A stretch of DNA of 64,000 bases from a virus. Positions 5,904-53,492 of the stretch are shown here, piece by piece. The stretch is from the IMG/VR virus record IMGVR_UViG_3300029390_000003; one strand, given 5' to 3'. Position 1 is the stretch's first letter, and each line of letters begins with the position of its first letter. The position numbers and the translations under genes were made by a program. The notes under the pieces were generated by a model. It worked only from the letters and a program-made list of their open reading frames with translations. It did no database searches and was not told the origin of the DNA.

Positions 5904-7509
5904 ATCTACGCCTCAATCCGCAAACACAAACGATGTATTAAAAAAATTCGATCCAATAATCATATTTTCTTCGGACAAAGCGACTTTGATAATCTCATCG
6001 TCAGTATACGTTTCATCATATTCTGCTGTGTCGCAGACTTTGTATATCTCGCCGTCTTTATTTTGGAACAACGTTCCTTTACCAAGTTTTAATGGTTCTG
6101 TTTTCTTTTCTTCTCGAATATGTGCTTTCATGTATTTATTCCTCCCACCCACCCGTAAAATTTACCTTTTACCAGAATGAATATTTCGTTCTAATTGAAG
6201 GTGTTTCTACACTTTTTGCAGGATTTTCCAGCATCGCGGCCTTCGCCGTGATTTCATCGATACTCTTTTGGAAATCCTGTAGCTTCTTCAATTCGCTTTC
6301 GATGTCCAGTTTCACTTCGACATTCTCGATAAACCCCATATCCTCAAGGCATTTGCAGTAGCCAGCAATCTCGTTATAGAAGATGTGGTTGTACTCTTCC
6401 AAAAGCGTATGCCCGTCAAACAGCTTTACTTGCCATGCAATTCCAAATGGAGCTTCTTTCTCGTAATGAGATTCGACAGTGTAATACTTCATACATACCT
6501 CAAATCAGCTTAATACCTTCTGGTTTAACATAATAAACAGAATTATTATACTTAACTACAAGATAACATCCATAAAGATTTTGAATCATCTTTTGAATAT
6601 ACACCTCAGCACCTTTTGGGATATCTTCCTTGTGTAAGGCAAGTGCAGTTTTCCAATCTTCGTCCATGAGATTTTCCAAAGCAACGCCTTTGCGCCCAGT
6701 GTATCTATCGTACATTATGTATTCTCCTTACTTAATGCCGTACTTAGCTTTGACCTTCTTCAAAGTCTCACTCTTGTTGTGATAGTCATCGCGAGCTGCC
6801 TGATAAGAAGTCATCTTCTCTGCAAGGACACGCTTTGCTTCGGCCTCTGCAACGTCAGCCTCTGCCAGCTCCTTGTTCAAAACAAAGCCGCTCGTCTTGA
6901 TACCATCAATAAAACCATCCATGCGATCCTTCTTGACACTCTTCTCGCCCATTGCACCAGTATCAGTGTTAAACATCTTCACAACAGAATCTTCGACACC
7001 AGCGATATTGTAAACGTAAAAATATTTAGCCATAATTTAATTCTCCTCGATCTTTTCAAACTTATAAACTGTATTCTCAGTCTGGACAATAACATTTTTC
7101 TTGTCACTTGAGATGTAATAATCAACAACACAAGATGTGTGCATTGCGCCCGGATAATCATGTCCATCATTATCTTTGATGTATCGGAAACCAGCTGATT
7201 CTCCGATCTTCAGATGCACGATTTTCATTGTCATGCCAATCCAAGTTAGATACCAGCCGTCGTTTCGAGTGCGGCCAGTTACCAGTGAGATTGCGTTCGT
7301 CAGCTCGTACTGATTTTCCATAATCTCATCATCAATCGGATTTTTATGAGTCAATGCAGCATTCGGCATCTTTTCAATTGTGCGTGTCAAAAGAAGCATG
7401 AAATGCATAAACGCATCATGCTTATCCTGCTCAGCATCGATTTCTGCGTACTTGCCCATCCGATACAGAAGCTCGGACGTATCGATTGTCTTTCCCATAA
7501 ACACCTCGA

Positions 7510-8043
7510 TTACTGTTTTCCAGTAGAACCAAACCCACCGGCTCCACGCTCAGTTTCGTCCAATTTGGAAACTTCTTCAAAATCAGCCTGCCAAAACGGA
7601 ACAACTGCCATCTGAGCAATGCGGTCGCCATGAGTAATCATCTGCGGGATGTTGGAATAGTTGTGGAGAGGAATAATGATCTCTCCACGATAATCCTGGT
7701 CGATGATTGGCACAGCGTTTACAGGTGCAAGTCCCTGCTTTGTGGAAAGACCGCTGCGGGCGAAGCCCTGAATGTACCAACCTTCCGGCGGAGCCATTCG
7801 CAAACCAGTATGTACCTTAACGGTCTCATGCGGCTGAATCATAATACAACGATCGCCATTCTTGTTTACCATCGTTGCATCATCAAAACCAATATAGGCA
7901 TACAGGTCTGCACAAGCAGCATTTGCAGAACCATAAGTCGGCAGATGAGCGTCATCGTGCAATTTGTTGATTTTAATGTTGGGGCGATACGGCATCTGAC
8001 TCATGCCATAGCCAAGATTAATAGTTGTGTTTCCTAAATCCAT
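7510..8043 (-). CDS. dut: dUTP diphosphatase.
   Basis: All five dUTPase motifs are present: AACADLYA, GFARSGLS, PVNAVPIIDQDYRGE, and the C-terminal RGAGGFGSTGK. Confidence 0.85.
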   Translation of the reverse strand: MDLGNTTINLGYGMSQMPYRPNIKINKLHDDAHLPTYGSANAACADLYAYIGFDDATMVNKNGDRCIMIQPHETVKVHTGLRMAPPEGWYIQGFARSGLSTKQGLAPVNAVPIIDQDYRGEIIIPLHNYSNIPQMITHGDRIAQMAVVPFWQADFEEVSKLDETERGAGGFGSTGKQ

Positions 8044-8044
8044 G

Positions 8045-8599
8045 TTATTTTCCTTTCTCTTCTGGAGTCCACCAAAGGACTGGTCTTCGCAAAGCAAAAC
8101 TCTTATTACAGCCGATTACACGTTGATTGGAACTCCCCATGTACGGCAAAGAGATATCTCGTTTAGATTCAATATATGGGCCATCGACTAGCACGTTTAT
8201 GTTTCGAATAATTGTTACCGTTGTCGGAATAGTTTGATATTCCAATTCTTCTGCCGCCTGTTGAATCAATTCTTCCCATGTATATCCAGTCCACATCCAA
8301 ATGTCTTTGCTTCCTTCAAACTCGTGTCTGACTCTTATTAGAATTTTGCAAATCATCTCCCTGTTCTCTGGATACAGTGGATCTCCACCAGTAAGCGTAA
8401 GCCCCTGAATATAATCAGGTCGAAGTAAATCTACAATTTTATCAAGCGTTTCATCAGTGAATGGCTGACCACCATTCGGGTCCCATGTGGTAGGATTTTG
8501 ACAACCTGGACAATGGTGATCACAACCCTGCACGAAAAGTGTGACACGCACCCCTTCACCATTTGCTATATCACATGGAACGATTTTAGCGTAGTTCAT
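8045..8599 (-). CDS. nrdG: Anaerobic ribonucleotide reductase activating protein (radical SAM).
   Basis: The sequence CDIANGEGVRVTLFVQGCDHHCPGCQNPTTWD, then TLTGGDPL and GSSNQRVI, is the NrdG pattern (CxxxCxxC variant with the G-rich SAM motif). Confidence 0.8.
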   Translation of the reverse strand: MNYAKIVPCDIANGEGVRVTLFVQGCDHHCPGCQNPTTWDPNGGQPFTDETLDKIVDLLRPDYIQGLTLTGGDPLYPENREMICKILIRVRHEFEGSKDIWMWTGYTWEELIQQAAEELEYQTIPTTVTIIRNINVLVDGPYIESKRDISLPYMGSSNQRVIGCNKSFALRRPVLWWTPEEKGK

Positions 8600-38744: not shown

Positions 38745-40221
38745 TTATCCTCTTTGCTTTTCTGGAAAATGCTTCTTAGTTACTGCAACGCAAAAGCTAT
38801 CAATTTCTGACCCCCAAATGGCAGTACCTTCACCATATGTGCTTTGAAATACTAACGGAAAGCCGCCGATCCCATCGAAGAGGCTACCAAGAGTAGGATT
38901 CTCACCGATATACGGTTTCATCTTCTGAAAAATCCAATACCATTGCGGTAATGCGATTGAATTGCCGAGTGCCTTATAACGAACTGCGTCAGAAGTTTTA
39001 TGCTTCTTTTCGTTCTCATCAATCCAGTCACCGATATCTGTCCATCCATCAGGGAACCCCTGAAGCCGTTCATCCTCCAAAGGAGTCAAACGGCGAACAA
39101 TCCATCGTAGATTCTTCGTTTCTTTTTCTGTAATCAGGTCAGTAGCGTCCTTGTAATCACGAGATTTCATCGTACTAGCCTGTTCACTTTCCTTGTATTC
39201 ACCAATGCGTTGCATCGCAAAGGCTTTCTTCTCAATGACCAGTGGCATATTATTGCCACCAGTTCCCCACTGAGCAGTACAAGTCGGACTTGTATCACTC
39301 AGCTGAGTGTATCGAGCGTCTTGACTGTGGCTCTCAAACACCACCGGCGAAATCTTTTGTTTTAAATTATGTAAAGAGGGATTTTCTGCCAAGCAAATCA
39401 GCGTCTGGTCTTGTAACGTAGAAATCGTTGCGCTCAATTCAGTTTGAACCAGAGCGCCTTTACCGCCACCTTCACATCCAGAACGGATTTTTAGAGTGTA
39501 GGCTGCAGGTTCTGTGCATCGAGTCGAAGTCTCTCGATGGTCTGACTCCAATACTCGTCCAATTCCTTCTCTTCCAGACCTTCTTGTTCCTTCACTTTCT
39601 GCACCACCTGTGACAGAGTTCCTGGATTCCACCATTCGATCATATCCAGCAACGCTTGCTTCAGGAGTTCGGGCAAAGGTTTTCCACGCCGGGATGCTCT
39701 CACAAGAATCCCCTGACATGCTCGTGCGCTCAAATAGAATTTCTGAGGCACGTTGTCCTCCAAAATCCATGACAAGCGCGATTCTCTGGCGACGCTGGGC
39801 GACTCCCCAGTATTTAGCGTCGAACAATCTCCATGCAATAGACCATCCATTACCGGAAATCGCTCCAGATTTTGCCCACTTTCCGTTCTTCCCTGAAGGT
39901 CGAGGAATTGAAACGTCTGGCTCGACAATGCGTGCAAATCTTTCCAACACACATCTGAAGTCTTCACCTTTGCTTGAGCTGAAAGCTCCTCTGACATTTT
40001 CCCAGATTGCGAATTTTGGATATTCTCCATTAGTGGCCTCCCTCATTTCTGTAATCACACGAATCATTTCAAGGAACAATCCAGAGCGTTCACCAGCCAA
40101 ACCTTCACGTTTACCGGCCTGACTCAAATCTTGGCATGGACTGCCTCCTGTGATACAGGAAACCGGTTCAATCTGCCACCCATGAAGTTGTGTAATATCT
40201 CCGTAATGCTTCAGTTTTCAT
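38745..40221 (-). CDS. DNA (cytosine-5)-methyltransferase with circularly permuted motif order.
   Basis: From N to C the motifs run GGSPCQ (IV), ENV (VI), QRRQR (VIII), a roughly 200-aa variable region, RRLTPLEDERLQGFPDGWT and GNSIALP (IX/X), then FDGIGGF (I) and SEID (II) at the very C-terminus. The ATG at 40221 is 1 nt out of frame (A4 run). A CTG 8 nt downstream of AGGAGG is in frame. Confidence 0.75.
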
Positions 40222-40424: not shown

Positions 40425-40661
40425 CTACTATCCCATGCAAACGCCGACTTTCGTCGGCGCGATGCCAGCGGAGGAATCGAACCTCATCTCTCGGTGTTTC
40501 CGAGCGCTTTTACCATTAAGCTATCCAGCCGTATACCTCAGAATTTAATTCTCACTATCCAAGCTACGTCGCGTTCCAATATGATCACTCTTGGCAACCA
40601 TGTCGTAACATATAGGTTCCTTTCGGCTCTGAGTAACCGGTGCAGCGTAAGGGGCTGCGTG

Positions 40662-41888: not shown

Positions 41889-44108
41889 TTAGCTCTTCTG
41901 CTGACTTGCGTAGAACTCATTCCGCAGCTGAATAATACCCTTCTTGCAGAAAGACTCTTGATCTTTCTCTCGTTGTTCACGCATCCAACCATAGAACAGG
42001 TTATCCTCGGCAGTAAACAACTTTGCGGTATTTTCATAATAGCCACGTTTTTGAACGCTCTGCATGACACCACGCAAGAACTTCCAGTGCTTATAATACG
42101 GAAGCTTCAGCTTAAACATGAAATTATTGCTGTCTCGCAAAACAAAGCCTTCAACGTGTTCAAAACCATGATGCAGATAGTTCTCGTTCATGACTTCTTC
42201 GTACCAAGGATAGAATTCACTCCAGTTCTCAAAGGTTTTAACCTTCTCCTTAATCTGCAGATGACACTTCTCGGCTACACGCTTCAAATCATCATAATCC
42301 ATTACACTGAAATTCATATCATTTGCAATAATATCCAGCAAAACAATGTGCGGTTTCTTATATTCGATGATATGTGCATCATTCACAGGATCAATCACCT
42401 CGAAGATGATGGAGCCATTCTCTTTTGCAACTTCTTTCAGATTCTTACGATCTTCATCAGAAGTCGTATCCATGAGAATCTTTCGGAACATATCTGCAAA
42501 AGGCCCATCAGGAGTGGATTTACTTGCAATGAACAGACCATCCTGTTCTGCATCATACGAAATGATACCAAGAAATCCGTTCTCTTTTAGATATGCAGTC
42601 ACCGGGAACTTCAAAGTGTTCTGTAGGTTTCCAATTCTCGTTTCATTCCGCTCATCAACCGCAAAGAACTTATCATAGCTTCGAGCTACAATCTTATTCG
42701 TCTTTGTGTTAATGAACAACCCTCTTGCTTTGGTAGAAACCTCATCCCAGTGCTTCTTATAAAATGCTTCACGAGAGAAGTTGAAAGAAGAAATATCTCC
42801 GAATCGCTTCTCAAACACATATTTGCTTTGACGCATCTTACTAACAAGTTCTGCGTTATCGAACTCAGTTTTCATTTCAACGGCAGTTTCAGTCTTTGGC
42901 TCCTCTTTTCGGAATACATCATTCTTGGTTTCTACGCATTTGATAGGCTGACCGTGTTCAAGCTCCACACAACGAAGATATCCACCAAACTCGATTTTGC
43001 CTTCAAGATTGTAGCACCGATGACCCATATCAATAGGAACATCCTGTACATTTCGATGGCCGAAGATCTGAATATAGCTATCCGGCATCGACTTTTCCCA
43101 AGACTCAGCCACGGTCAGTATATCAGGATAGCGGCCTACGCCTTTAATCATCTGATCCGCAGACACGAACGGAAGAAAATAAGGAAGATAGCTCAGACCA
43201 CCGTGACTTACGAAATACCGCTTACCATCATACTCAAAGTAGACACACTGGCCGACTCTGGAATAGATCTTACGAGCAGTGTTCTTGTCAATACCGGCTT
43301 TAAAGAGCTGCGGACGAGTGTAGTTTGCAAACTCTTCACTTTGAACCGGTTTATCACGCCCCCACTTGTTCAGCCAATGCTCGTGGTTCCCTTCCAAAAG
43401 GATCACATTCTTGCGGTTGTTATTTACAACATCACACAAGAACTTGAATACCTCAACGTTTTCGATGCCACGATCGAGATAATCACCAACGAAGATATAA
43501 AGCTCGTCGTCCTTCATCTCACCAAGGTATTCACTCAAGCAGGTATAGCAGCCATGAATATCACCGATGATATGTATCTTTTTCCACTGGTTAAAGTCAT
43601 TCGGGCAGTAGTTCAAATCGGACATCACATCCGTAGTAGAAGGAAGAACTGTCACGCCAGAAGGAACTTTTTGAGTAGCAAACCGAGCGTACATCTTATC
43701 AATAGCCGCTTCAGGAACTCGCTTTAGCCATTCTCTCTGAGCGTTTCTTCGTTTGCATTCCTCGATCGGAAGGTCCGTCATATCAATAACATACATCCGA
43801 TAACGATACTGTTTTGCAAGATTCTTATAACAATTCATTTCGACCGTCTTGGAATTCGTTGCATCAATCACAGTAAACTCGCCATGGCTCATCCGCACCT
43901 CAAGCAGTTTGAAAAGCATCTCCCATACAACATCATCATTCTGCTGAGAAATCTCCATCTGCCCATCAGGTGTTTCCTGTGCGCTCTGGCACATAAGGCG
44001 AAGTGTATCAACACTCAATACGTACTGCTCAAGATTATGCTCTTTAATATAGGTGGACTTCCCGCAACCGGGTGCTCCACGGAACAGTAAAAGTGTTCTC
44101 ATCTGCAT
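41889..44108 (-). CDS. Pnkp-like RNA end-healing and sealing enzyme: P-loop polynucleotide kinase, calcineurin-type phosphatase, and a C-terminal nucleotidyltransferase (ligase-like) domain.
   Basis: The N-terminus has Walker A (FRGAPGCGKST). The middle has the binuclear phosphoesterase motifs IIGDIHGCY, GDYLDRG and GNHE. The C-terminal 350 aa carry a KxNG lysine motif (AYLKENGFLGII) like ligase/adenylyltransferase motif I. The domain order matches bacterial Pnkp. Confidence 0.7.
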   Translation of the reverse strand: MQMRTLLLFRGAPGCGKSTYIKEHNLEQYVLSVDTLRLMCQSAQETPDGQMEISQQNDDVVWEMLFKLLEVRMSHGEFTVIDATNSKTVEMNCYKNLAKQYRYRMYVIDMTDLPIEECKRRNAQREWLKRVPEAAIDKMYARFATQKVPSGVTVLPSTTDVMSDLNYCPNDFNQWKKIHIIGDIHGCYTCLSEYLGEMKDDELYIFVGDYLDRGIENVEVFKFLCDVVNNNRKNVILLEGNHEHWLNKWGRDKPVQSEEFANYTRPQLFKAGIDKNTARKIYSRVGQCVYFEYDGKRYFVSHGGLSYLPYFLPFVSADQMIKGVGRYPDILTVAESWEKSMPDSYIQIFGHRNVQDVPIDMGHRCYNLEGKIEFGGYLRCVELEHGQPIKCVETKNDVFRKEEPKTETAVEMKTEFDNAELVSKMRQSKYVFEKRFGDISSFNFSREAFYKKHWDEVSTKARGLFINTKTNKIVARSYDKFFAVDERNETRIGNLQNTLKFPVTAYLKENGFLGIISYDAEQDGLFIASKSTPDGPFADMFRKILMDTTSDEDRKNLKEVAKENGSIIFEVIDPVNDAHIIEYKKPHIVLLDIIANDMNFSVMDYDDLKRVAEKCHLQIKEKVKTFENWSEFYPWYEEVMNENYLHHGFEHVEGFVLRDSNNFMFKLKLPYYKHWKFLRGVMQSVQKRGYYENTAKLFTAEDNLFYGWMREQREKDQESFCKKGIIQLRNEFYASQQKS

Positions 44109-44123
44109 CTCCCTTTCTAATAG

Positions 44124-44141
44124 GTATCCTGTGTTATATAG
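44124..44141 (-). promoter_or_regulatory. 18-bp motif, copy f, 16 nt upstream of the Pnkp-like start.
   Basis: GTATCCTGTGTTATATAG. It is followed on the gene strand by tattagaaAGGGAGatgcagATG. Confidence 0.6.
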
Positions 44142-44152
44142 TTAGCATGTTA

Positions 44153-44180
44153 AAATGAAGGGGCCGAAGCCCCCTGTTTT
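44153..44180 (-). terminator. Bidirectional rho-independent terminator after the 44180..45106 gene.
   Basis: On the minus strand, the stop codon TAA is followed by aaaCAGGGGGCttcgGCCCCttcatttt. The + strand reads GGGGCcgaaGCCCCctgttttt. Confidence 0.7.
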
Positions 44181-45106
44181 TAATTTTCATGGAAATATTC
44201 AACCCAACCTTTATATCCTTGCCGGAAACTAAGATAGGCAACTTTACTGCACTTTCTTCCGATAATGTCCGCAAGAGGACCTTTACCATTTCCGAAACTA
44301 AGTTCTGCAAGATTAAATTTTGGATGAGTTTTACAGTAGTTATAAACCTTGATATACTCACAATTTCTGGCTAAATATCTTTGATCTAAGGTTTTTGAAT
44401 GATGCCTTTTTTCGAGGATATCGTTCAACCTCGAAAAATAGACATGAATTGAAATTATAGACGTCTTTGGATCACTGTTTACACCGGGTTTATCCTTCGT
44501 TTTGCGTAGGATATAATCGCCATTCATGACATAAAATGTTCTATAACCGCTCTTATTGGGGGCATCATACTGTTTCATCTCGTAACATTGCTTGATAATA
44601 TCCATTAACCTTGCGTCAACATCAGTCTTATCAAGAACGGTATTAGATTCAAAATCCACATCGTTAATTGTTAGATTAGAAATCTCATCGGAAGTAAGAC
44701 CAATCCAGTACAAAACAGCAATTACGTTCATACGAATCTGATATGGCTCTTCGTACTTATTTAAGAAGTCAACAAATTCGTCAACCGACGCAAAATAACT
44801 GTCATTGTACATATCATCTGCGCTTACATCGCTCTCTGAAAAGTCAGCCAGATCATACATGCTTGTTTCGTTTTCACTTTTGATGTAGCCTGTGATTATT
44901 GACTTCACATTTTTAAACGAACGACTCGAATTCACCCAATTATATTTGGCAAACATCTTTACGAAATCATCTTTTGTGAAGTCAAACAACTCATACCCAC
45001 GCTCGGCCTCGTAATCCATGACGTGACGCATCGTCGATGCAACAAACTCACCGCTTCTATCAGAATACTTTTCGGCAAAAGCTTTGATTTTTTCTTCAGT
45101 AAGCAT
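44180..45106 (-). CDS. Hypothetical protein.
   Basis: This 308-aa ORF has a clean stop followed by a terminator hairpin. No confident domain was found. Confidence 0.3.
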   Translation of the reverse strand: MLTEEKIKAFAEKYSDRSGEFVASTMRHVMDYEAERGYELFDFTKDDFVKMFAKYNWVNSSRSFKNVKSIITGYIKSENETSMYDLADFSESDVSADDMYNDSYFASVDEFVDFLNKYEEPYQIRMNVIAVLYWIGLTSDEISNLTINDVDFESNTVLDKTDVDARLMDIIKQCYEMKQYDAPNKSGYRTFYVMNGDYILRKTKDKPGVNSDPKTSIISIHVYFSRLNDILEKRHHSKTLDQRYLARNCEYIKVYNYCKTHPKFNLAELSFGNGKGPLADIIGRKCSKVAYLSFRQGYKGWVEYFHEN

Positions 45107-45159
45107 AGTGGCACACTCCTTCTTATTATATGTAGTGTACCATTAAACCTTATAAAAAA

Positions 45160-45579
45160 TCAAGCAAATGCGGCAAAATTCTGAAATTCCATGGTATGTT
45201 GTACGCCGCTCAGGAATGCTGCAAGCAAAAACGGTTCATCCTTGCATCTTGCCATTGCGATCATATTCATCTGACGCTCCGACAAGACACCAAGTTTTTT
45301 AATGAACTGTCCTTTGTTAAGTGTATCAGTCTCTTCACATAGAACGATACTATCAACCTCTAGGAAATCACAATCTTCCTTTGAGAGTAGAACATGAACC
45401 GGAGAGCGCTTGTATATTCTGGAAGACAACGGATTCCCTTTAATTGTTGGACTAAAGAAGTTGCGCTTATTGTTGCTCGTCACAACGAACGGTCGAATAC
45501 CGCGCTGCTGATGACCTGTCGCATTGGATAGATCAACCAACCAAACCTCTCCGACCTTTGGGTCAATATTGTTGTCCAT
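45160..45579 (-). CDS. MazF/PemK-family endoribonuclease-like protein, with no antitoxin partner evident.
   Basis: The N-terminal pattern GEVWLVDLSNATGHQQRGIRPFVVTSNN and the later SIVLCEETDTLNK...GVLSERQMNMI match the PemK/MazF fold signature. Confidence 0.55.
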   Translation of the reverse strand: MDNNIDPKVGEVWLVDLSNATGHQQRGIRPFVVTSNNKRNFFSPTIKGNPLSSRIYKRSPVHVLLSKEDCDFLEVDSIVLCEETDTLNKGQFIKKLGVLSERQMNMIAMARCKDEPFLLAAFLSGVQHTMEFQNFAAFA

Positions 45580-45618
45580 AGTCTTTCTCCTCTATAATAG
45601 TGTAGCTCCGTTCCATAG

Positions 45619-45636
45619 CTATATTATACAGGATAC
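45619..45636 (+). promoter_or_regulatory. 18-bp motif, copy g (inverted orientation), upstream of the MazF-like gene.
   Basis: CTATATTATACAGGATAC on the + strand. Confidence 0.5.
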
Positions 45637-45670
45637 CTTTACAGAAGTCAATAGGTTTTCAAAAATATTT

Positions 45671-45997
45671 TTAGTGCCCGTACAACTCTGGATTCTCTGA
45701 TACGAACACGCTGGTGTTATCGAATATCATCTCATACGCTTTCTCTTTATCGCCCGGCCTAAACTCAACCCTCCTTACTTCGTGACATTCTTGCCGCAAC
45801 TCAATATGACTTTCGTTTCCAAAAAATCCAATGCCTTTGACAATCCCATGCGTCTCTACGCCAATGTCGTCCATCTTTTTGCAGATCATGTGAACATCCA
45901 CACCATTGCAAATAAAACAGACCCACACTCGCTTTTTTCTTATGTACTTCAAAAAGTTCTCAACCTGTATAACTCCCAAAACCTTTTTCTCACTCAT
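45671..45997 (-). CDS. Hypothetical protein.
   Basis: A 108-aa ORF upstream of the MazF-like gene. It does not resemble an AbrB/MazE swapped-hairpin fold. Confidence 0.3.
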   Translation of the reverse strand: MSEKKVLGVIQVENFLKYIRKKRVWVCFICNGVDVHMICKKMDDIGVETHGIVKGIGFFGNESHIELRQECHEVRRVEFRPGDKEKAYEMIFDNTSVFVSENPELYGH

Positions 45998-46095
45998 CGA
46001 AATACCGCCTTCCGATCACATAAACAACTTCCAAGATATATTATACACATCTTTTTGTTTTCGTCAATATGTACCACACCATTTTGTTGTGCTAC

Positions 46096-46132
46096 TTTAT
46101 CAAAATTTTAGATGATGCCATTTACTCAGCAT
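46096..46132 (-). terminator. Hairpin terminator overlapping the stop codon of 46122..46748.
   Basis: The stem GATGATGC / GCATCATC is followed by taaaattttgat on the minus strand. Confidence 0.5.
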
Positions 46133-46748
46133 CATCCACAACCAGCTTCGCGTCATAATAAAACCTGTGTGCGCCAAATTGCCCAGCAAAGGTTGCTCCG
46201 CGCTCGTGCCAACTGCCTGGAGCAGCCGCCGGGGTTACAAACCATTGAATAGGTTTGTCTGAAATCTTAGCGCCGTAATCAAACACCATAGACACAGCCA
46301 GTTCGTTCTCTGCCGTCACCTTCCTATTATATAAGGAACTATAACCATACTTCTTAAAGACCTGCTGGATGGTTAGACTATCAAGTACAGCGGAATCATA
46401 AAGGCATTGGGCCACAGCCATCTGGCCTTCCAAACTGTCAGCACCTGCTTCACAAGCAACGATCTGCTCCGCAAGAGCACGTTCGTCATCAGTGAGTTTA
46501 TGTTTGCCCTGACCAAAGTTTACAATCCGCATCTCAGTAACGGTTTCTACAATGACTTCTGGCTCCTTTTCCTCTTGCTGCACTACACTCACTGCCGGAG
46601 GGCTATTATTATAAAGGTATGAATCACCATGATTCTGAATTACCGGACTGATCTTCGATACAAGATTCCCCGTCAGCAGGCACATTATACACACAATAGC
46701 AATACTTTGCTCACGATTTATTAACAAATTAGAGTTAATAAGAATCAC
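46122..46748 (-). CDS. SleB-like cell-wall hydrolase with an N-terminal signal anchor.
   Basis: The N-terminal transmembrane segment is followed by DERALAEQIVACEAGADSLEGQMAVAQCLYDSAV, which matches the Hydrolase_2 / SleB motif. Confidence 0.55.
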   Translation of the reverse strand: MILINSNLLINREQSIAIVCIMCLLTGNLVSKISPVIQNHGDSYLYNNSPPAVSVVQQEEKEPEVIVETVTEMRIVNFGQGKHKLTDDERALAEQIVACEAGADSLEGQMAVAQCLYDSAVLDSLTIQQVFKKYGYSSLYNRKVTAENELAVSMVFDYGAKISDKPIQWFVTPAAAPGSWHERGATFAGQFGAHRFYYDAKLVVDDAE

Positions 46749-46772
46749 TTCCTTTCAAAAATATTGGTTTTA

Positions 46773-47525
46773 TCAGATCTTTAAAGACTCCTCATTTACG
46801 GTCATCACAAGCTCGTTGACCCGCTTCCAATCAACATTGTCCGGCAGGTAAGTCTCGCTCTTGTCAACTGACAATCTGCTTTCATAGGCCGGAATCAGTT
46901 GCTGACGAATCTCTTTGTAATCATATTCACCGTTGCGAAGCTGCGTCAGGAAGTTATGATCATTGTCTCGATAGGTTTTAATTTCACCTTTTTCCAAGAT
47001 GTCAAAGAGCATCAGGTATACACGAACTGCATTCATTACCGTCTTGTGCATTTTCTTTGAATTATGGTAGATTGGATCTTTGTCTAATGTATCAGACTTC
47101 TGAATCAGCTTGCCTGCAAAACCTCCAAACGAGTAAATCACACGCTTTGAAAGGAATAGGTTTTTGTTGTCCATAAGTAGCTGCGTCATTGGGTTATAGC
47201 TAATAACGAGTTCATCGGCATTTCCTAACTGTTCCAGCATATTGGGATTTCCACTGCACATCAATTTCACAGCTTTGTTAAAGCTATAAATCGTTGTATC
47301 GGTCTGAGTGTCCACATAATGCTCAAACTCACCGAGACCAAGAAGGTCTTCTTTTGAATTCAATGCTACACCTCGAATGTCAAGATCTGAGCCCTCAACA
47401 TTTGTCCCGTAAGCATGACTGCCACCGACCGTTACGAACATCATATGCTTGCCAAGATGCTCATTCTCCCGAAGAAAACTATATTCTGGGAAGCATAACG
47501 CTCCAAGCAATTCATTTCTTGTCAT
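46773..47525 (-). CDS. Pol-beta-superfamily nucleotidyltransferase, PF10127/RlaP-like.
   Basis: VTVGGSHAYGTNVEGSDLDIRGVA is the GS-x-YG ... SDxDxRG active-site pattern of this nucleotidyltransferase family. Confidence 0.5.
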   Translation of the reverse strand: MTRNELLGALCFPEYSFLRENEHLGKHMMFVTVGGSHAYGTNVEGSDLDIRGVALNSKEDLLGLGEFEHYVDTQTDTTIYSFNKAVKLMCSGNPNMLEQLGNADELVISYNPMTQLLMDNKNLFLSKRVIYSFGGFAGKLIQKSDTLDKDPIYHNSKKMHKTVMNAVRVYLMLFDILEKGEIKTYRDNDHNFLTQLRNGEYDYKEIRQQLIPAYESRLSVDKSETYLPDNVDWKRVNELVMTVNEESLKI

Positions 47526-49058
47526 AGAATCACCTCTATTAGAACTTAGTTTTTATCAGATGTCTTTCCACCACTCGGAAATATCATCATCGTTAATTTC
47601 TTTCTTTGTTCCGACCTCACGAAAGCATTCGCAGATACTATCCCAAATTGCAATCACAAGATCACTACTTCTTTCAAGAGTATGCCCGAAGTAGTCCTTG
47701 TAATAAAGGTTAAGCATAAACGATTTTCCATTCATTCCATAAGTTGGAATTGGTTCATCAGCAACTTTAATCCACATACGGCCTCCTTAAATCTTAACTT
47801 TTATAAATCCGTTTATTCCATGCTTCGATAAGATCGGCTTTAATTTTTGCTTTTTCCATTTCAGAGGAATCAAAGTCGTAAGTTTTGCTTTCCATGATAA
47901 CATAGCAGTTGCACCTATTTTCTTTGTTTCCTCTCGTAACATACATCCATCGTGTTTGGCGATAACCGCCCTCTGCAATAGTAACTTCTCCACCGCAAAA
48001 TGGACACGGTTTCAAATTATCCATTTCGACCATTCCTTCCCTGTTTCATTTCCAGCCGCCCACTCTGATCATCGGCATCGGAAAGCGCTCCTAACAGACT
48101 AAGTGCGTACACGGCATCCAATACTATAAGTAAAATTATCATAATCCACATTATATTAACCTCACATTCTTTTGGCTTGACCATCTTGTATTGAGGTTGT
48201 CTCAAGCATACACCGCACAAAGAGATTATTCAACACAATTATCAAAATTACCAAAATTTTACTAATAATCCTACGTCATCAATAGTTATATCATCGGTCT
48301 GCACATCCTTTTGTTAAGTATCCACAAGAACCCGGATTTTATCAATTCTTGCATACTTTACATCATTAGCCATCAAACCCCATAATGGAAACTGTATGCT
48401 TTCCGTTATCATAACGAAAATAAAATCCGCCAAGAGTTTTGATGGTCTCTAATTTTGTCATGTATTCAGCAAGTTTTATTTCATACAAATCTCCAGAAAA
48501 GTGTTCTAACCCTTTCCATTGTTCATCAAGCTCATTCGTTAACTGTCTAATACCTTTGCATAACGCTTTGATTTTCTCGTCATTACTTTTCATCCATTGC
48601 ATCCTCAAGCTTTCCGTTGATGGAGTCGATTTCACGCATTAGCTTACAACGCCAATTACCATCTTTGTCAAGCCTAAAACACAGATTCTCATCATTACTC
48701 TTGTATCCCATGTAGCAGTAAGCCCTACACAAGCTTGTTGCATCAAGTGCGTCTTGTATAACTCGTGCTTCATTGAGAGTCAAATCAATCTTCATCTTGT
48801 TTCTCTCCAATCAAACTTCTGACCACAATCTCTGCAATAGTGATCATACCTACTTGTAATTACCGTATTGCATTTGGGACAGCGAAAACTTCCATGCTTC
48901 GGATCGACGACAACTATTTCACCCTCAATACGGCTGAAATAGTCATCAAGTACATCGCTCAAAATCATCTTCCCACGCCAGCCGAGGTCATTCTGCTGAA
49001 TATTCTTCGTGAGAATTCGATATGCGCTAATGATTTCACGCTTTGTGTATTTCATGTT

Positions 49059-49577
49059 TTACTCCTCTACAATATCCTGATTCACAGAATTCCATACCTC
49101 GGTCGAAGTGCTGTCATTCTCATCAGATAGGCGATCAATCCAAGCGTTCAACACTTCTCTATACACAGTCATATTCGGGCAAAAATGACTGTTGGTAAAT
49201 ACCGGCATATCGTCATTGCACAAGATTCTCATGATGGCAGCACACACAGCGGCAGATCTCGATACACCAGCAGCACAATTCACGCAGAACCAATCGGTTT
49301 TATCTGCTTCGTGATTATCCAGAACAAAATTCACGATATCCTTAGCCTGAATATCAGTGATACAGGTGCCTTCTAAATCAGTAGTGCAATCATCAAACTT
49401 CAGCGGGAGAAAAGTAATATTGCCCTCACACTTATGAAAATCAATATGATGACCATTAGCTTCAGTGATTGAGATAAACCGTATCCGTTCAAAATGTGGC
49501 TGTCGGATAAAGTCTTCTGCATCTTCTGCACTCATCACCGAGAATTTCCATTTTCTTCGATACATAGTAACAATCAT
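49059..49577 (-). CDS. Cys-based (dual-specificity / PTP-like) phosphatase.
   Basis: The P-loop VNCAAGVSRSAAV (CxxGxxRS) is present, and the general-acid Asp lies upstream. Confidence 0.55.
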   Translation of the reverse strand: MIVTMYRRKWKFSVMSAEDAEDFIRQPHFERIRFISITEANGHHIDFHKCEGNITFLPLKFDDCTTDLEGTCITDIQAKDIVNFVLDNHEADKTDWFCVNCAAGVSRSAAVCAAIMRILCNDDMPVFTNSHFCPNMTVYREVLNAWIDRLSDENDSTSTEVWNSVNQDIVEE

Positions 49578-50429
49578 TTAGTTTTCCCTCCAAAGAATTT
49601 AGGTTTTATATGGGTCTACGTCAAAAGCTTCCTTGGTATATTCTGCCTTAACCCTTTCGAGCACTTCATCGACGATGTTAATAGCAATTTCTAACCCATG
49701 CATTTTACCATGTAGATATATTCTGCCACCATTCTTTTTCATATCGAGAGCAGACTCAAAATGCTCTCGTCTAGCGTCAATGTATTCATCATATAATCGA
49801 TTGTAAATTTCTTCCAGTTCTTTCATATTTATACCTCCACTTAAAACGCAAACGGATTACTATTCACTGTTATTATCAGCGCTACATTAAAAGCAAACAT
49901 TACAAATGCGGTCATTCTCTATCACCTCAATCTCTAAATTCAATATCTACAACAATATTCTCAGGCTCTGTCATGTACCTTCGTGCCAGCAGTTCTACCA
50001 TGCGTTCCTTATCCCCAAGATTGCTATTACGCAGTAGGTATGAACAAACTTGCCTACCTCTGTACAAGAACACAGCCCATGCATTTCTCCTCAATGGGTT
50101 TGTTGTGTTAATCATTCCATCGCTTCCTCCAGAGATGTGGTCACATCGCCAAAGTCAAAATCCAGAGCACCAATCATATCATCCAGAGCATCTACAGCAT
50201 CGGACAGGTTTGTACAAGCCTCGTCTGCCTTGTCATACCGCTCACTCCCCTGCAGATTCTCCGGCATGTTGTCACGATACTCTTCTTCTTCCCACTGGAT
50301 ATTCTCAACATCGGATTTTACACTTTCGACCTCAGACACGAGCTCGTCCAGCTTCTTACGGATGGAATCAAAACGATCAATAGTCTGCTTAATAGCTTTT
50401 CTACGAGTGTTATTCATTTTCAAATCTCC

Positions 50430-51538: not shown

Positions 51539-52357
51539 TCAGTCTTCCAAGCTGTGTGTATTCACACCATAAAAAGTCTTCTTATAATATTCTTTTGCCT
51601 TATCCTCATCAAAACCAACGTACCGTAATGTAATATCCTGACTACTATGATTCAACTGACCCTGAATCCAAGACAATGCCTGGTTATCATCCTTATTAAG
51701 ACACATCTCACGATAACCAAATGTCTTACGGCAAGAATGAGACGCAATCTTATAATTAAGATTCAAATCTCTACCAGCATTACGAAGGATACGAGCAAAA
51801 GAATCAACATCAATAGGATCACCGGCTTTTTTGGGTTCTGCAATATGAGGAATACCAGTTTTCCCATCTCCACCATTTGTCCTCAACGACTTTTTCCAAC
51901 TCCCCTGCCGAGACGGAAACATCCAATCGTCATATCCAAGATTTGCAATCTTAATGTACGTTTCAACGATGTCTCTCGCTTCTGGAGTAAGAATGATTTC
52001 ACGATATTTGGAAGTCTTTTCTTCGACGATGCAAGTTCCTGCGTCCTCAACCACCTCAATTTTTCCATTATAAAGACAGTAAGACATATCAGAAACTTTC
52101 AATTTAAGTAAGTCACTAGCACGCAACCCAGTTGCAATGCCGACATTAAATAGACACCAATTGCGATATTGCTTTTTATCCCAGAAGTATTCCGAAATCA
52201 TTTGAACATCATCCAAGCTTCTAATTGGAGAAATATTACGCTTACGCTTCTGCTTACTTTTTGTAACACCACGCTTTTTCGCCGGAACGGAAGGTTTAGG
52301 ATTAAAATAGACCAATTTAGATATCTGTTCTTCTTTTCTTTCAACAACTGCACTCAT
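51539..52357 (-). CDS. Tyrosine recombinase (second integrase-family gene).
   Basis: It has the catalytic Arg (TGLRASDLLKLK), then HSCRKTFGY, then LNHSSQDITLRYVG (His/Arg/Tyr triad). Confidence 0.75.
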   Translation of the reverse strand: MSAVVERKEEQISKLVYFNPKPSVPAKKRGVTKSKQKRKRNISPIRSLDDVQMISEYFWDKKQYRNWCLFNVGIATGLRASDLLKLKVSDMSYCLYNGKIEVVEDAGTCIVEEKTSKYREIILTPEARDIVETYIKIANLGYDDWMFPSRQGSWKKSLRTNGGDGKTGIPHIAEPKKAGDPIDVDSFARILRNAGRDLNLNYKIASHSCRKTFGYREMCLNKDDNQALSWIQGQLNHSSQDITLRYVGFDEDKAKEYYKKTFYGVNTHSLED

Positions 52358-53492
52358 CACATTCACCTCAAATCCCATACTTTAAACAGTATTTTCCGTA
52401 AGACAATCCCTCGGCATCCGCAAGTTTAATAACATCGCTGAATGTCAAGATTGGCTTTTTGCTTCGTTCCTGTTCTCGTCTCTTTCTTTCATAAGCCTGT
52501 CGCGCTTCGATTCTTACTATCCTGCGGCAATGATCACAATACTCATGATTTATAGCAGCCGGCGCACCACAAACCTTACAGTGTCCGTTTCCTCTGATAG
52601 TAGGCATACCTTACACCTCGAATTCATCAATCTTCCAGTGGTGACGATAATAACTTTCACCACTACAAACAACAGATGCTTCCGCAGCTTCGCACCATGT
52701 CTCGTCATTACTTACAGGCTGTAGGTCATTCTTGCTTTCATTAAACAGGAATACCATTTTATCAATTGCTTTGACTCTATCCTTTGTGACCATAATCACA
52801 TTATCTTCTGCGTAAAAGTCACTGGAATCAATGCATTCGTGTAAAACATAGACCTTCATTTTTTATGTACCTCAATTCTTTTCAAATAGATCATTACGAA
52901 CCTTCGGAGTAAATTGACGAGTACCAAGCTGCTCAATAGCAGTCTCTAGCTTGCCATCTCCCCATTCTCTGGTTTCTGTATTCATAACGATCTCAAGCAA
53001 AAGCTTTGCGTCCTTAGCTTCTCTACGCTTCCGGCGAGCCTTTTTAAGCTCTGCCATAAGCTGATAACCTTGCGCTGCATTCACGGTCTTAAACTCAATA
53101 GCATGTTCTAGATCATCAATCTCATCACTTGCGGAAGTCAAATCACCGTACACTTTTGAATACATCTCTTTCAGATTACACATGGTTTTATCTGTGATAA
53201 CCAAATTCTTTTTAAGTTCCGCCAGCCATTCAGAATCTTCCATGTGAAATGCGTATGTATTTGACTTTACAGCCGGAGCCGTTATATTCGGACTCTTGCC
53301 TGCAATGGTAGCTTCATCCATAGACTTCGGTGCGTAGTGCCCGTTTTTATACCCGGCGGGAAGCTTGTTGATCTCACAAATCGCCAGTCCCTTGGATTCA
53401 AACTGTAAAGCCAGATTGATATCACAGGTGGCGCAGATTCGACCTCCCTTCCGTTTCATAATATAGTTGTGACCATTCGATATTACGTACCT

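Follow-up and report, generated by a model that had tools for sequence, protein, structure and literature searches.

We analysed a 64,000-nucleotide stretch of viral DNA, IMG/VR record IMGVR_UViG_3300029390_000003 (hereafter the window), in which genes for four proteins lie near a group of tRNA genes: a Pnkp-type RNA repair enzyme fused to an RNA ligase (Pnkp-ligase), a MazF-family endoribonuclease, an RlaP-family nucleotidyltransferase and a Cys-phosphatase of the dual-specificity phosphatase (DSP) type. An earlier note had read these genes and the tRNAs as one coordinated module that damages host RNA and/or protects phage translation. The four open reading frames (ORFs) were found exactly where that note had placed them, on the minus strand like all genes of the region, and profile and fold searches upheld the domains assigned to them (Table 1). 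The tRNA array, counted as seven genes, contains eight according to ARAGORN and Rfam, and the protein genes do not flank it but lie all on one side. The placement of the end-healing and sealing enzyme directly beside the array was confirmed, the tRNAs beginning 117 nt downstream of Pnkp-ligase, but the same claim did not hold for MazF, RlaP and DSP, which are 3.4, 5.0 and 7.3 kb away.

Table 1. Positions of genes and sequence elements in the window
Feature	Coordinates	Strand	Length	Remarks
tRNA genes (8): Met-CAT, Gly-TCC x2, Leu-TAG, Gln-TTG, Pro-TGG, Leu-TAA, Leu-CAA	40358..41771	-		ARAGORN; Rfam 52-67 bits
Marginal ninth tRNA-like element	40463..40529	-		Rfam RF00005 30.0 bits against a gathering score of 29; no ARAGORN call
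Pnkp-ligase, predicted trifunctional RNA repair enzyme (kinase-phosphatase-ligase)	41889..44108	-	739 aa	Pfam, PHROG, NCBIfam and solved-structure matches
GC-rich hairpin, weak terminator-like site between the MrpR-like and Pnkp genes	44159..44175	-		Consensus scan
MrpR/YopR-like protein, integrase fold, Thr for first catalytic Arg (GLTSDE)	44180..45106	-	308 aa	In 80/80 close relatives
UACAUA hexamer in the MazF–MrpR-like spacer	45129..45134	-		22 nt upstream of the MrpR-like start codon
MazF/PemK-family endoribonuclease, ~30-aa C-terminal extension	45160..45579	-	139 aa	Pfam, PDB
Near-consensus sigma-70-type promoter (TTGACT, 17-nt spacer, TATAAT) just upstream of MazF	45623..45651	-		11/12 matches; predicted
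orf108, small fast-evolving ORF upstream of MazF	45671..45997	-		In 79/80 close relatives
Near-consensus promoter (TTGACG, 16-nt spacer, TATAAT) upstream of orf108	46040..46067	-		Consensus scan; predicted
Terminator-like hairpin preceding the orf108 promoter	46109-46138			Consensus scan
orf208, conserved backbone gene	46122..46748	-		PHROG 18750; in 78/80 close relatives, also L182 and L184
RlaP, short-form nucleotidyltransferase (GS...DLD motif), optional cassette	46773..47525	-	250 aa	Pfam, PHROG
Hypervariable cassette zone	46773..49900	-		RlaP, Lar-like (47794-48033), zinc-ribbon (48792-49055), DSP, several small ORFs
DSP, Cys-phosphatase of DSP/PTP fold (CAAGVSRS, FDD general-acid-like loop), optional cassette	49059..49577	-	172 aa	

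About 170 related loci were compared. One set held 80 close relatives, in which Pnkp is 88-100% identical to the window enzyme, and a diverged set held 80 Pnkp-ligase loci from bacterial genomes, with neighbours counted within 10 kb. Neighbourhoods of 10 kb were also inspected in four cultured phages (Alicyclobacillus KKP_3916, SPbetaL2, Twort and Brochothrix A9). Among the close relatives, Pnkp, MazF and a gene between them encoding a protein resembling the SPβ repressor MrpR (MrpR-like) were present at 80/80 loci, and orf108, a small ORF upstream of MazF, at 79/80. RlaP was found at 23/80 (29%) and DSP at 51/80 (64%), and the presence of one was statistically independent of the other (odds ratio 0.51, p = 0.29). 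At the diverged loci MazF and RlaP each occurred four times in 80 and DSP not once, and none of MazF, RlaP, DSP or a tRNA array lay within 10 kb of Pnkp-ligase in the 4/4 cultured phages. A single diverged locus, L144, had MazF, RlaP, Pnkp-ligase and a tRNA gene all within 10 kb. Since RlaP and DSP are patchy, and given the counts at diverged loci, the four genes are not co-conserved and so do not make up the one coordinated unit that had been proposed. We conclude, with a probability of roughly 0.6, that the locus holds three independent things: RNA repair together with tRNAs, a MazF–repressor cassette, and optional cargo.

The MazF cassette with a probable repressor gene, and the UACAUA hexamer

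The cassette consists of orf108, MazF and the MrpR-like gene. MazF matches PemK_toxin (2e-19; 70.1 bits against a cutoff of 23.1), its best solved homologues are the S. aureus and B. subtilis MazF proteins (5e-14), and alignment showed that the positions of the catalytic Arg (GIRPF) and Ser/Thr (PLSS), presumably R25 and T48 of the B. subtilis enzyme, are retained. Within the close relatives MazF is at least 95.7% identical, and its ratio of nonsynonymous to synonymous substitution rates (dN/dS) is 0.026, against 0.09-0.13 for the immediate neighbours: the gene is under strong purifying selection. In the four sister clades (L181-L184) MazF is still 62-68% identical to that of the window, where the MrpR-like protein is only ~25-31% identical. 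The description of MazF as solitary proved half right: it has no MazE-like antitoxin neighbour, but it is conserved together with the small ORF upstream and the repressor-like gene downstream. Promoter-like sites (9-11/12 matches) precede MazF also in L181, L182, L183, L184 and L082.

The upstream ORF, orf108, has its own promoter-like site and is a candidate regulator or antitoxin of MazF. Its homologues are restricted to the window's phage group, where the upstream ORFs of the sister clades form one family with it (orf108 to L182, 1.4e-5; L182 to L181, 1.8e-10). It gave no Pfam, PHROG or PDB match, and its AlphaFold model had no significant PDB match either; the model is of low confidence (predicted local distance difference test score, pLDDT, 67), which would allow for an unrecognised antitoxin. 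A MazE/YosL/AimX-type motif (GYxEMGxIN-type) is absent from every frame of the window, and hhalign comparison of orf108 with SPβ YosL showed no similarity (E = 0.62).

The protein encoded downstream of MazF is a probable DNA-binding repressor, to judge from several lines of comparison with MrpR/YopR, the integrase-fold master repressor of SPβ, which has lost recombinase residues (PMC10516654). Its sole Pfam match is MrpR_N_CB (6e-4; 20.8 bits against a cutoff of 27), with no match to MrpR_C_cat, and a phmmer search of the PDB gave only a weak integrase match rather than the solved MrpR. Its counterparts are more explicit: that of L138 matches MrpR_N_CB at 7e-12 (46 bits), and MrpR_C_cat is found in L182 and in L087-type relatives. 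A BLAST chain leads from the window protein to L182 (9e-26) and from L182 to SPβ YopR (1.5e-7), the family profile is collinear with YopR (hhalign E 5.4e-5, probability 67%), and the gene is syntenic with yopR of SPβ. Alignment showed Thr in place of the first catalytic Arg (GLTSDE versus GLRISE of Tn1549 Int); MrpR carries V137/S138 at that position (PMC10516654).

The cassette was followed in seven lineages, namely the window clade, the four sister clades, L082 (MT835544) and L138. The order small ORF–MazF–MrpR-like is kept in 4/4 sister clades, where the slot after the cassette holds a full Pnkp-ligase in L181, a kinase-phosphatase in L184 and no Pnkp in L182 or L183. The MazF–MrpR-like pairing recurs in L138 and in L082, a 35 kb contig without Pnkp. 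In these comparisons the small ORF–MazF–MrpR-like cassette is conserved across seven diverged lineages, with or without Pnkp.

Several observations were made beside the cassette. A Band_7 (SPFH) gene follows the MrpR-like gene where a full Pnkp-ligase is lacking (L182:11907-12806, L183:11967-12872, L184:12926-13828). The MazF-like protein of L082 (3273-3713) has His for the catalytic Arg (GVHPY versus GIRPF) and may be altered or inactive. In the unrelated Thomasclavelia phage TR-TP1 (L177:1034-2354) a MazF-like gene has a Phage_integrase-family gene (1.4e-35) immediately after it, another pairing of MazF with an integrase fold. Lactobacillus phages had been considered as carriers of both Pnkp and MazF and were set aside, the MazF of phage Satyr having no Pnkp within 12 kb.

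TACATA is found in the spacer that separates MazF from the MrpR-like gene in 79/79 close relatives and in 5/5 diverged lineages having the spacer, a conservation exceeding that of the Shine-Dalgarno sequence. It is the sole hexamer common to six spacers, and a hexamer shared by all six arose in 0/20,000 shuffles. MazF enzymes of Bacillota cut strictly at UACAUA, as found for the B. subtilis enzyme and likewise for those of L. monocytogenes and S. aureus (bioRxiv 10.64898/2026.08.06.743204). Throughout the window TACATA occurs 36 times on the sense strand versus 13 on the antisense strand, and is among the ten most over-represented sense-strand hexamers. Non-ORF sequence, 7% of the window, holds 11 of the 36 sense sites; there the hexamer matches AAGGAG in abundance, no copy of its reverse complement occurs, hexamers of the same composition average 2.0, and a count of 11 was reached in 0/5,000 shuffles. 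Seven of the sites are followed within 0-22 nt by a start codon, among others that of the MrpR-like gene and those of the genes for a YorF-like protein, a Sak4-like protein and DNA polymerase. UACAUA positions in the window include 45134, 37189, 35953 and 26989. The cassette-bearing diverged loci (L181-L184, L138 and L082) together have 24 sites where ~6 are expected.

Avoidance of the MazF motif on phage transcripts was considered and rejected, since the sense strand has more TACAT (108) than expected (83; z = +3.8). The longer sequence CTTACATA was likewise rejected as a multi-copy operator: the window has no further exact copies of it, and it is the shorter hexamer that is enriched. The SPβ operator core AATATGTATA, present in 9/10 SPBRE promoters, contains TACATA in the opposite orientation, and these cores stand 6-78 nt before start codons. 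UACAUA in the leaders may accordingly be read in either of two ways, as a MazF cut site or as a repressor operator. We also counted UACAUA in non-ORF sense DNA of SPβ itself (L173, L185; 105-134 kb), with 9 occurrences where hexamers of the same composition average 3.0, and of SPbetaL2, with 9 against 3.1.

The nearest known system is the lysis-lysogeny control of SPβ and phi3T (MrpR/YopR/SroF, with host MazEF modulated by AimX, YosL and SroB). The window phage shares with it an SPβ-like backbone, an integrase-fold protein without the first catalytic Arg at the yopR position, a MazF of the UACAUA-specific family, and MazF-type sites over-represented on the sense strand (PMC10516654, PMC10769878, 10.1101/2023.04.27.537455). 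MazF sites are enriched in SPβ and phi3T transcripts, and MazF has been proposed to promote lysogeny there by cutting lytic transcripts (10.1101/2023.04.27.537455; PMC10769878). In contrast to SPβ and phi3T, MazF is here encoded by the phage, immediately upstream of the repressor gene, and no AimR, AimP, AimX or YosL-like component was recognised in the window phage. By analogy with SPβ and phi3T, where host MazF promotes lysogeny, the phage-borne MazF would most likely act in lysogeny control or prophage maintenance; synteny and motif were observed directly, and the mechanism we infer from that analogy. In the literature searched, a phage's own MazF beside an MrpR-like repressor, with UACAUA, is new, and it would represent a variant of SPβ-family lysogeny circuitry.

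Predicted RNA repair, the tRNA array and optional cargo

Pnkp-ligase carries three Pfam domains: AAA_33 (residues 6-144, 3e-22), the calcineurin-like Metallophos (177-355, 3e-15) and RNA_lig_T4_1 (PF09511; 460-672, 4e-41). Its motifs comprise a P-loop (GAPGCGKS), phosphoesterase motifs (GDIHG, GDYLDRG, GNHE) and ligase motifs (KENG, EGFV, KLKLP). In an alignment with four phage homologues (38-45% identity) all catalytic motifs were invariant, including phosphoesterase motifs GDxH, GDxxDRG, GNH and GH and ligase nucleotidyltransferase motifs I/IV/V (K508-E-N-G, E653-G654, K666/K668). Among solved structures it matched the fungal Trl1 ligase, T4 Rnl1, the CthPnkp kinase (4gp7) and lambda phosphatase. 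From these domains and intact motifs, one polypeptide would combine a 5'-kinase, a 2',3'-phosphoesterase and an Rnl1-type ligase; its probable activity and targets are those of its families, the Pnkp chemistry having been described (PMC3675462, PMC2190708).

The protein belongs to PHROG 8238, annotated as RNA ligase of Firmicute phages, which it matches along its whole length (E 1.7e-226; residues 3-737 on positions 1-734 of the 737 in the profile); 112 phage records cover at least 80% of it. Family members include Twort ORF008, Brochothrix A9 gp147 and proteins of the SPbeta-like phages Goe11, Goe12 and SPbetaL2, all full-length homologues with 37-44% identity, the same architecture and invariant motifs. 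These phages differ from the window in that the gene is not beside MazF, RlaP, DSP or a tRNA array. Our literature search found no experimental study of the family.

Like Pnkp of the Clostridium thermocellum Pnkp-Hen1 system, the enzyme begins with a P-loop 5'-kinase, continues with a dinuclear metallophosphoesterase and ends with a ligase (PMC3675462). Homology to C. thermocellum Pnkp is detectable in the kinase and phosphatase parts, but the ligase is of the T4 Rnl1/fungal Trl1 type (PF09511) and not of the bacterial Pnkp type; the bacterial Pnkp equivalog model TIGR04075 scores 81 bits, where the cutoff is 750, and covers no more than residues 5-305. The ORFs scanned, which span 38.7-52.4 kb of the window, include none for a Hen1-like methyltransferase. 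With T4 Pnkp and Rnl1 the enzyme shares the logic of a 5'-kinase, 3'-end healing, an Rnl1-type ligase and phage tRNAs, and both phages have an RlaP-family nucleotidyltransferase, that of T4 being NrdC.11 (PMC12776372, PMC7824862). Unlike in T4, the three activities would reside in one polypeptide, the phosphatase is a metallophosphoesterase and not a DxDxT/HAD enzyme, and RlaP is dispensable in the window clade.

Two variations were noted around this gene. L184:11587-12813 encodes a 408-aa Pnkp with kinase and phosphatase only, which over 410 aa has 61% identity with the window enzyme. In ten close relatives (L036:7245-9931, L037, L041, L042, L051, L066, L068-L070 and L080) an insertion of ~2.5 kb separates the MrpR-like gene from Pnkp; it contains a ~690-760-aa ORF without Pfam match and a 127-aa ORF.

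Of the 80 close relatives, 76 retain a tRNA array of 7-8 genes, most commonly seven, and at least three tRNA genes occur at 6/80 diverged Pnkp-ligase loci. The array could replace depleted tRNAs. Phage tRNAs, ligases, kinases, phosphatases and RlaP act against host attacks on translation (PMC7824862), and Pnkp-ligase with the tRNA array, RlaP being optional, belongs to this published theme of RNA repair and tRNA provisioning. The earlier note took the co-location of its four elements to be undescribed as a unit; ligase, kinase, phosphatase, RlaP and tRNAs are, as a combination in phages, already in the literature (PMC7824862). The slot occupied by the array is itself mosaic among L087-L092 (~14.1-16.8 kb, downstream of Pnkp), where it holds a second RNA ligase (PF09414; L089:14183-14848), a TnpB-like Cas12f1-like_TNB gene (L088:15034-16323), a GIY-YIG endonuclease (L087, L092) or an HNH endonuclease (L090).

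RlaP was identified by PF10127 (67.8 bits against a cutoff of 23) and PHROG 388 (5e-44), and it has the Pol-beta GS...DxD motif, GGSHAYGTNVEGSDLDIRG in sequence, without the ~90-aa insertion of the long form. RlaP is a true accessory of RNA repair: it extends 3'-OH ends of RNA by 1-2 nucleoside monophosphates and occurs in association with 5'-phosphate RNA ligases (PMC12776372, PMC7824862), in agreement with the earlier note, which linked the family to RNA-ligase and RNA-repair operons. In the window the gene lies 2.7 kb upstream of the ligase, in L144 ~150 bp upstream, and in L181 it shares the ligase's neighbourhood, a recurrence that fits the published ligase-associated repair role (PMC12776372). 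Where present, RlaP could restore a nucleotide trimmed from the 3' side of a break ahead of ligation. In one relative, L092, it is split into ORFs of 173 and 74 aa.

The phosphatase scored below threshold with Pfam DSPc (20.6 versus 33.5 bits), and 37/37 sampled relatives match DSPc. Its AlphaFold model (predicted template-modelling score, pTM, 0.78) gave Foldseek probabilities of 1.0 to the folds of PRL-1, MKP5 and DUSP5, and RNA triphosphatases were not among the top solved folds. Family-invariant residues are those of the CX5R(S) loop (C101/R107/S108) and D63, and the invariant FDD loop aligned with the PLVDD general-acid loop of vaccinia VH1. Within the superfamily, the branch of RNA 5'-triphosphatases (BVP, PIR1/DUSP11 and the capping-enzyme triphosphatase), which acts on RNA 5' ends, is not known to have the general-acid Asp. 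Given this and the alignment with VH1, the window DSP is more likely a classical phosphomonoesterase. Of the suggested resemblance to RNA 5'-phosphatases and DSPs, the DSP fold and the P-loop stand, and the invariant Asp argues for a classical DSP. Outside the clade no homologue adjoins RNA-repair genes, and those seen are surrounded by small unannotated phage genes. The protein shares its P-loop, upstream Asp loop and fold with VH1, PRL, MKP and the protein tyrosine phosphatases (DSP-PTPases) of conflict systems (Pfam Tc-R-P, PTP-SAK, Rit1 DUSP-like). It differs from these named enzymes in belonging to a large uncharacterised family of stand-alone proteins of ~140-170 aa, with 4,087 representative clusters. 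On an unrelated phage-like contig a Macro-domain gene (L179:4806-5300) lies ~700 nt upstream of a DSP homologue (66% identical).

Both genes sit in a hypervariable zone that showed 46 presence/absence patterns in 76 loci and ranged from 1.8 to 4.9 kb. On this distribution DSP and RlaP are optional cargo, gained and lost independently. Other cargo seen in the variable zone includes GmrSD_N (DUF262) genes beside RlaP (L087-L092, ~7491-8267; L144:5718-8039). In L181 (6099-9361), RlaP and the MazF cassette are separated by an NAD-salvage set of phosphoribosyltransferase-like, NAMPT/NAPRTase and NAD synthase genes.

Weighing alternative explanations

The single module of the earlier note, in which the four proteins and the tRNAs would damage host RNA and shield phage translation from tRNA-cleaving defences, agrees with the presence of four real domains within 8 kb, on one strand and beside tRNA genes, and with the arrangement in L144. 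The independent, patchy occurrence of RlaP and DSP and the counts at diverged loci run counter to it, as do sister clades having MazF without Pnkp, RlaP or DSP and the remoteness of other DSP homologues from RNA-repair genes; on this neighbourhood analysis the model appears largely refuted, and we regard it as very improbable. Characterised phage healing-and-sealing systems all answer programmed RNA cleavage, as T4 Pnkp/Rnl1 does PrrC (PMC7824862), and tRNA-targeting defences can be evaded by means of phage tRNAs, as has been demonstrated (PMC10264068). These precedents make it distinctly unlikely that the tRNAs and Pnkp-ligase serve general translation optimisation and RNA maintenance in an AT-richer phage, with no defence conflict, although the anticodons TAA, TAG, TTG, TGG and TCC mostly decode A/U-ending codons and the window has a G+C content of 41%. 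A cut-and-reseal pairing, in which Pnkp-ligase selectively reverses MazF cuts (for instance on phage or tRNA substrates) as a reversible RNA switch or self-immunity, draws on the complementary end chemistry established for MazF and Pnkp (PMC3675462). MazF, MrpR-like and Pnkp genes are contiguous in all 80 relatives and L181, and less tightly so in L138; L184 retains the kinase-phosphatase part at the same position, and downstream of the MazF promoter only the weak hairpin parts the genes. Yet L182, L183 and L082 have the MazF cassette and no Pnkp, MazF is absent within 10 kb at 76/80 diverged Pnkp-ligase loci, and no MazF lies near the enzyme's gene in SPβ-like, Twort-like and Brochothrix phages, and we therefore consider such a pairing unlikely.

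A more serious alternative, though still one we think rather doubtful, is that the MazF cassette represents an ordinary prophage module of the toxin-antitoxin or abortive-infection type, for maintenance or phage exclusion, with MazF beside the repressor only since both are expressed in lysogeny, and that UACAUA is an operator of the MrpR-like protein unrelated to MazF. A conserved small upstream ORF with its own strong promoter-like site would fit an antitoxin partner, solitary MazF genes occur in other gut prophages (PMC12934698), and the SPβ operator core holds the same hexamer inverted at comparable places before start codons. However, orf108 has no antitoxin-like fold or MazE/YosL motif. 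As for an operator, conservation around the 11 non-ORF sites is limited to the hexamer, several sites fall between the Shine-Dalgarno sequence and the start codon inside tightly packed operons, and the hexamer persists where MrpR-like proteins are 16-31% identical, MazF specificity being conserved across Bacillota. A more speculative proposal, which we put forward tentatively and do not expect to hold in full, would extend the lysogeny analogy: these abundant gut phages would have taken over the MazF function that Bacillus SPβ/phi3T phages obtain from the host, cuts at UACAUA in the repressor-gene leader and in the translation-initiation regions of replication genes (YorF-like, Sak4-like, DNA polymerase) would set the balance between repressor and lytic expression at the RNA level, and Pnkp-ligase, in the lineages retaining it, could reseal the cuts, making a reversible switch.

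Several points weigh against the three-part reading that we prefer. A functional link between MazF and Pnkp is chemically plausible, the products of MazF cleavage being exactly the substrate of Pnkp, although the comparative evidence for it is weak; it is suggested because the genes are always adjacent in the window clade and because Pnkp or its remnant follows the cassette in 4/7 lineages, full-length in three and as a ligase-less remnant in one. The tRNA set could serve codon usage rather than counter-defence, because it decodes A/U-ending codons. The assignment to MrpR builds on direct similarity that is weak (sub-threshold in Pfam, 67% in hhalign), and a temperate lifestyle is suggested by homology, an integrase-family gene (51539-52378) and contigs of >300 kb.

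With the three-part reading, the repair enzyme, RlaP and tRNAs add a well-sampled example to the known theme of phage counter-defence, as modular parts and not a fixed unit. Of greater use is the conserved small ORF–MazF–MrpR-like cassette with UACAUA in phages common in human gut metagenomes. The mechanism by which MazF promotes lysogeny in SPβ-family phages has been described as uncharacterised (PMC10769878); a phage with its own MazF beside the repressor, and candidate cut sites at defined positions, makes the question directly testable.

Phage backbone and neighbouring features

Genes neighbouring the interval encode NrdD, an ATP-dependent DNA ligase, an exonuclease V/Dda-like helicase, a PolIII-alpha-type polymerase, RecJ, DnaB, a Sak4-like protein and a C5 methyltransferase. 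Members of the YorF and YorH families are encoded in relatives, and the gene order of the window agrees with the yop-yoq-yor region of SPβ. These backbone genes, the YorF/YorH genes of relatives and the SPβ-like order identify the window phage as SPβ-like and ~135 kb in size. In our reading, the interval is mosaic and belongs to the early region of such a gut phage of Bacillota. Human-gut viromes hold >100 close relatives, and distant Pnkp-ligase relatives come from SPβ-type prophages of Bacillus as well as from genomes and metagenome-assembled genomes of Lachnospiraceae (Acetatifactor and others). A search of deposited phage genomes for near-identical DNA returned one tRNA-sized match only and no close relative. 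The prophages of gut megaplasmids (PMC12934698) were considered and set aside, these being phages of 39-47 kb to which the window phage does not belong. The phage sits inside contigs far exceeding ~135 kb (L090, ENA contig_5630, 349 kb; others 317-319 kb), which suggests integration into a chromosome or large replicon.

Across the whole window (both strands), the most strongly depleted pentamers were CCTGG (3 observed, 41.5 expected), CCAGG (8 versus 28) and the two forms of GGWCC (5 versus 22.5 and 6 versus 21.6); this depletion of CCWGG and GGWCC looks like avoidance of palindromic restriction sites. The C5 DNA methyltransferase ORF (38745-40127, minus strand) begins just past the expected position of motif IV and has the motif order ENV, QRRQR, GNS and then a C-terminal, motif I-like FDGIGG. 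Relatives have two separate DNA_methylase ORFs at this place, and the window ORF may be permuted, split or interrupted.

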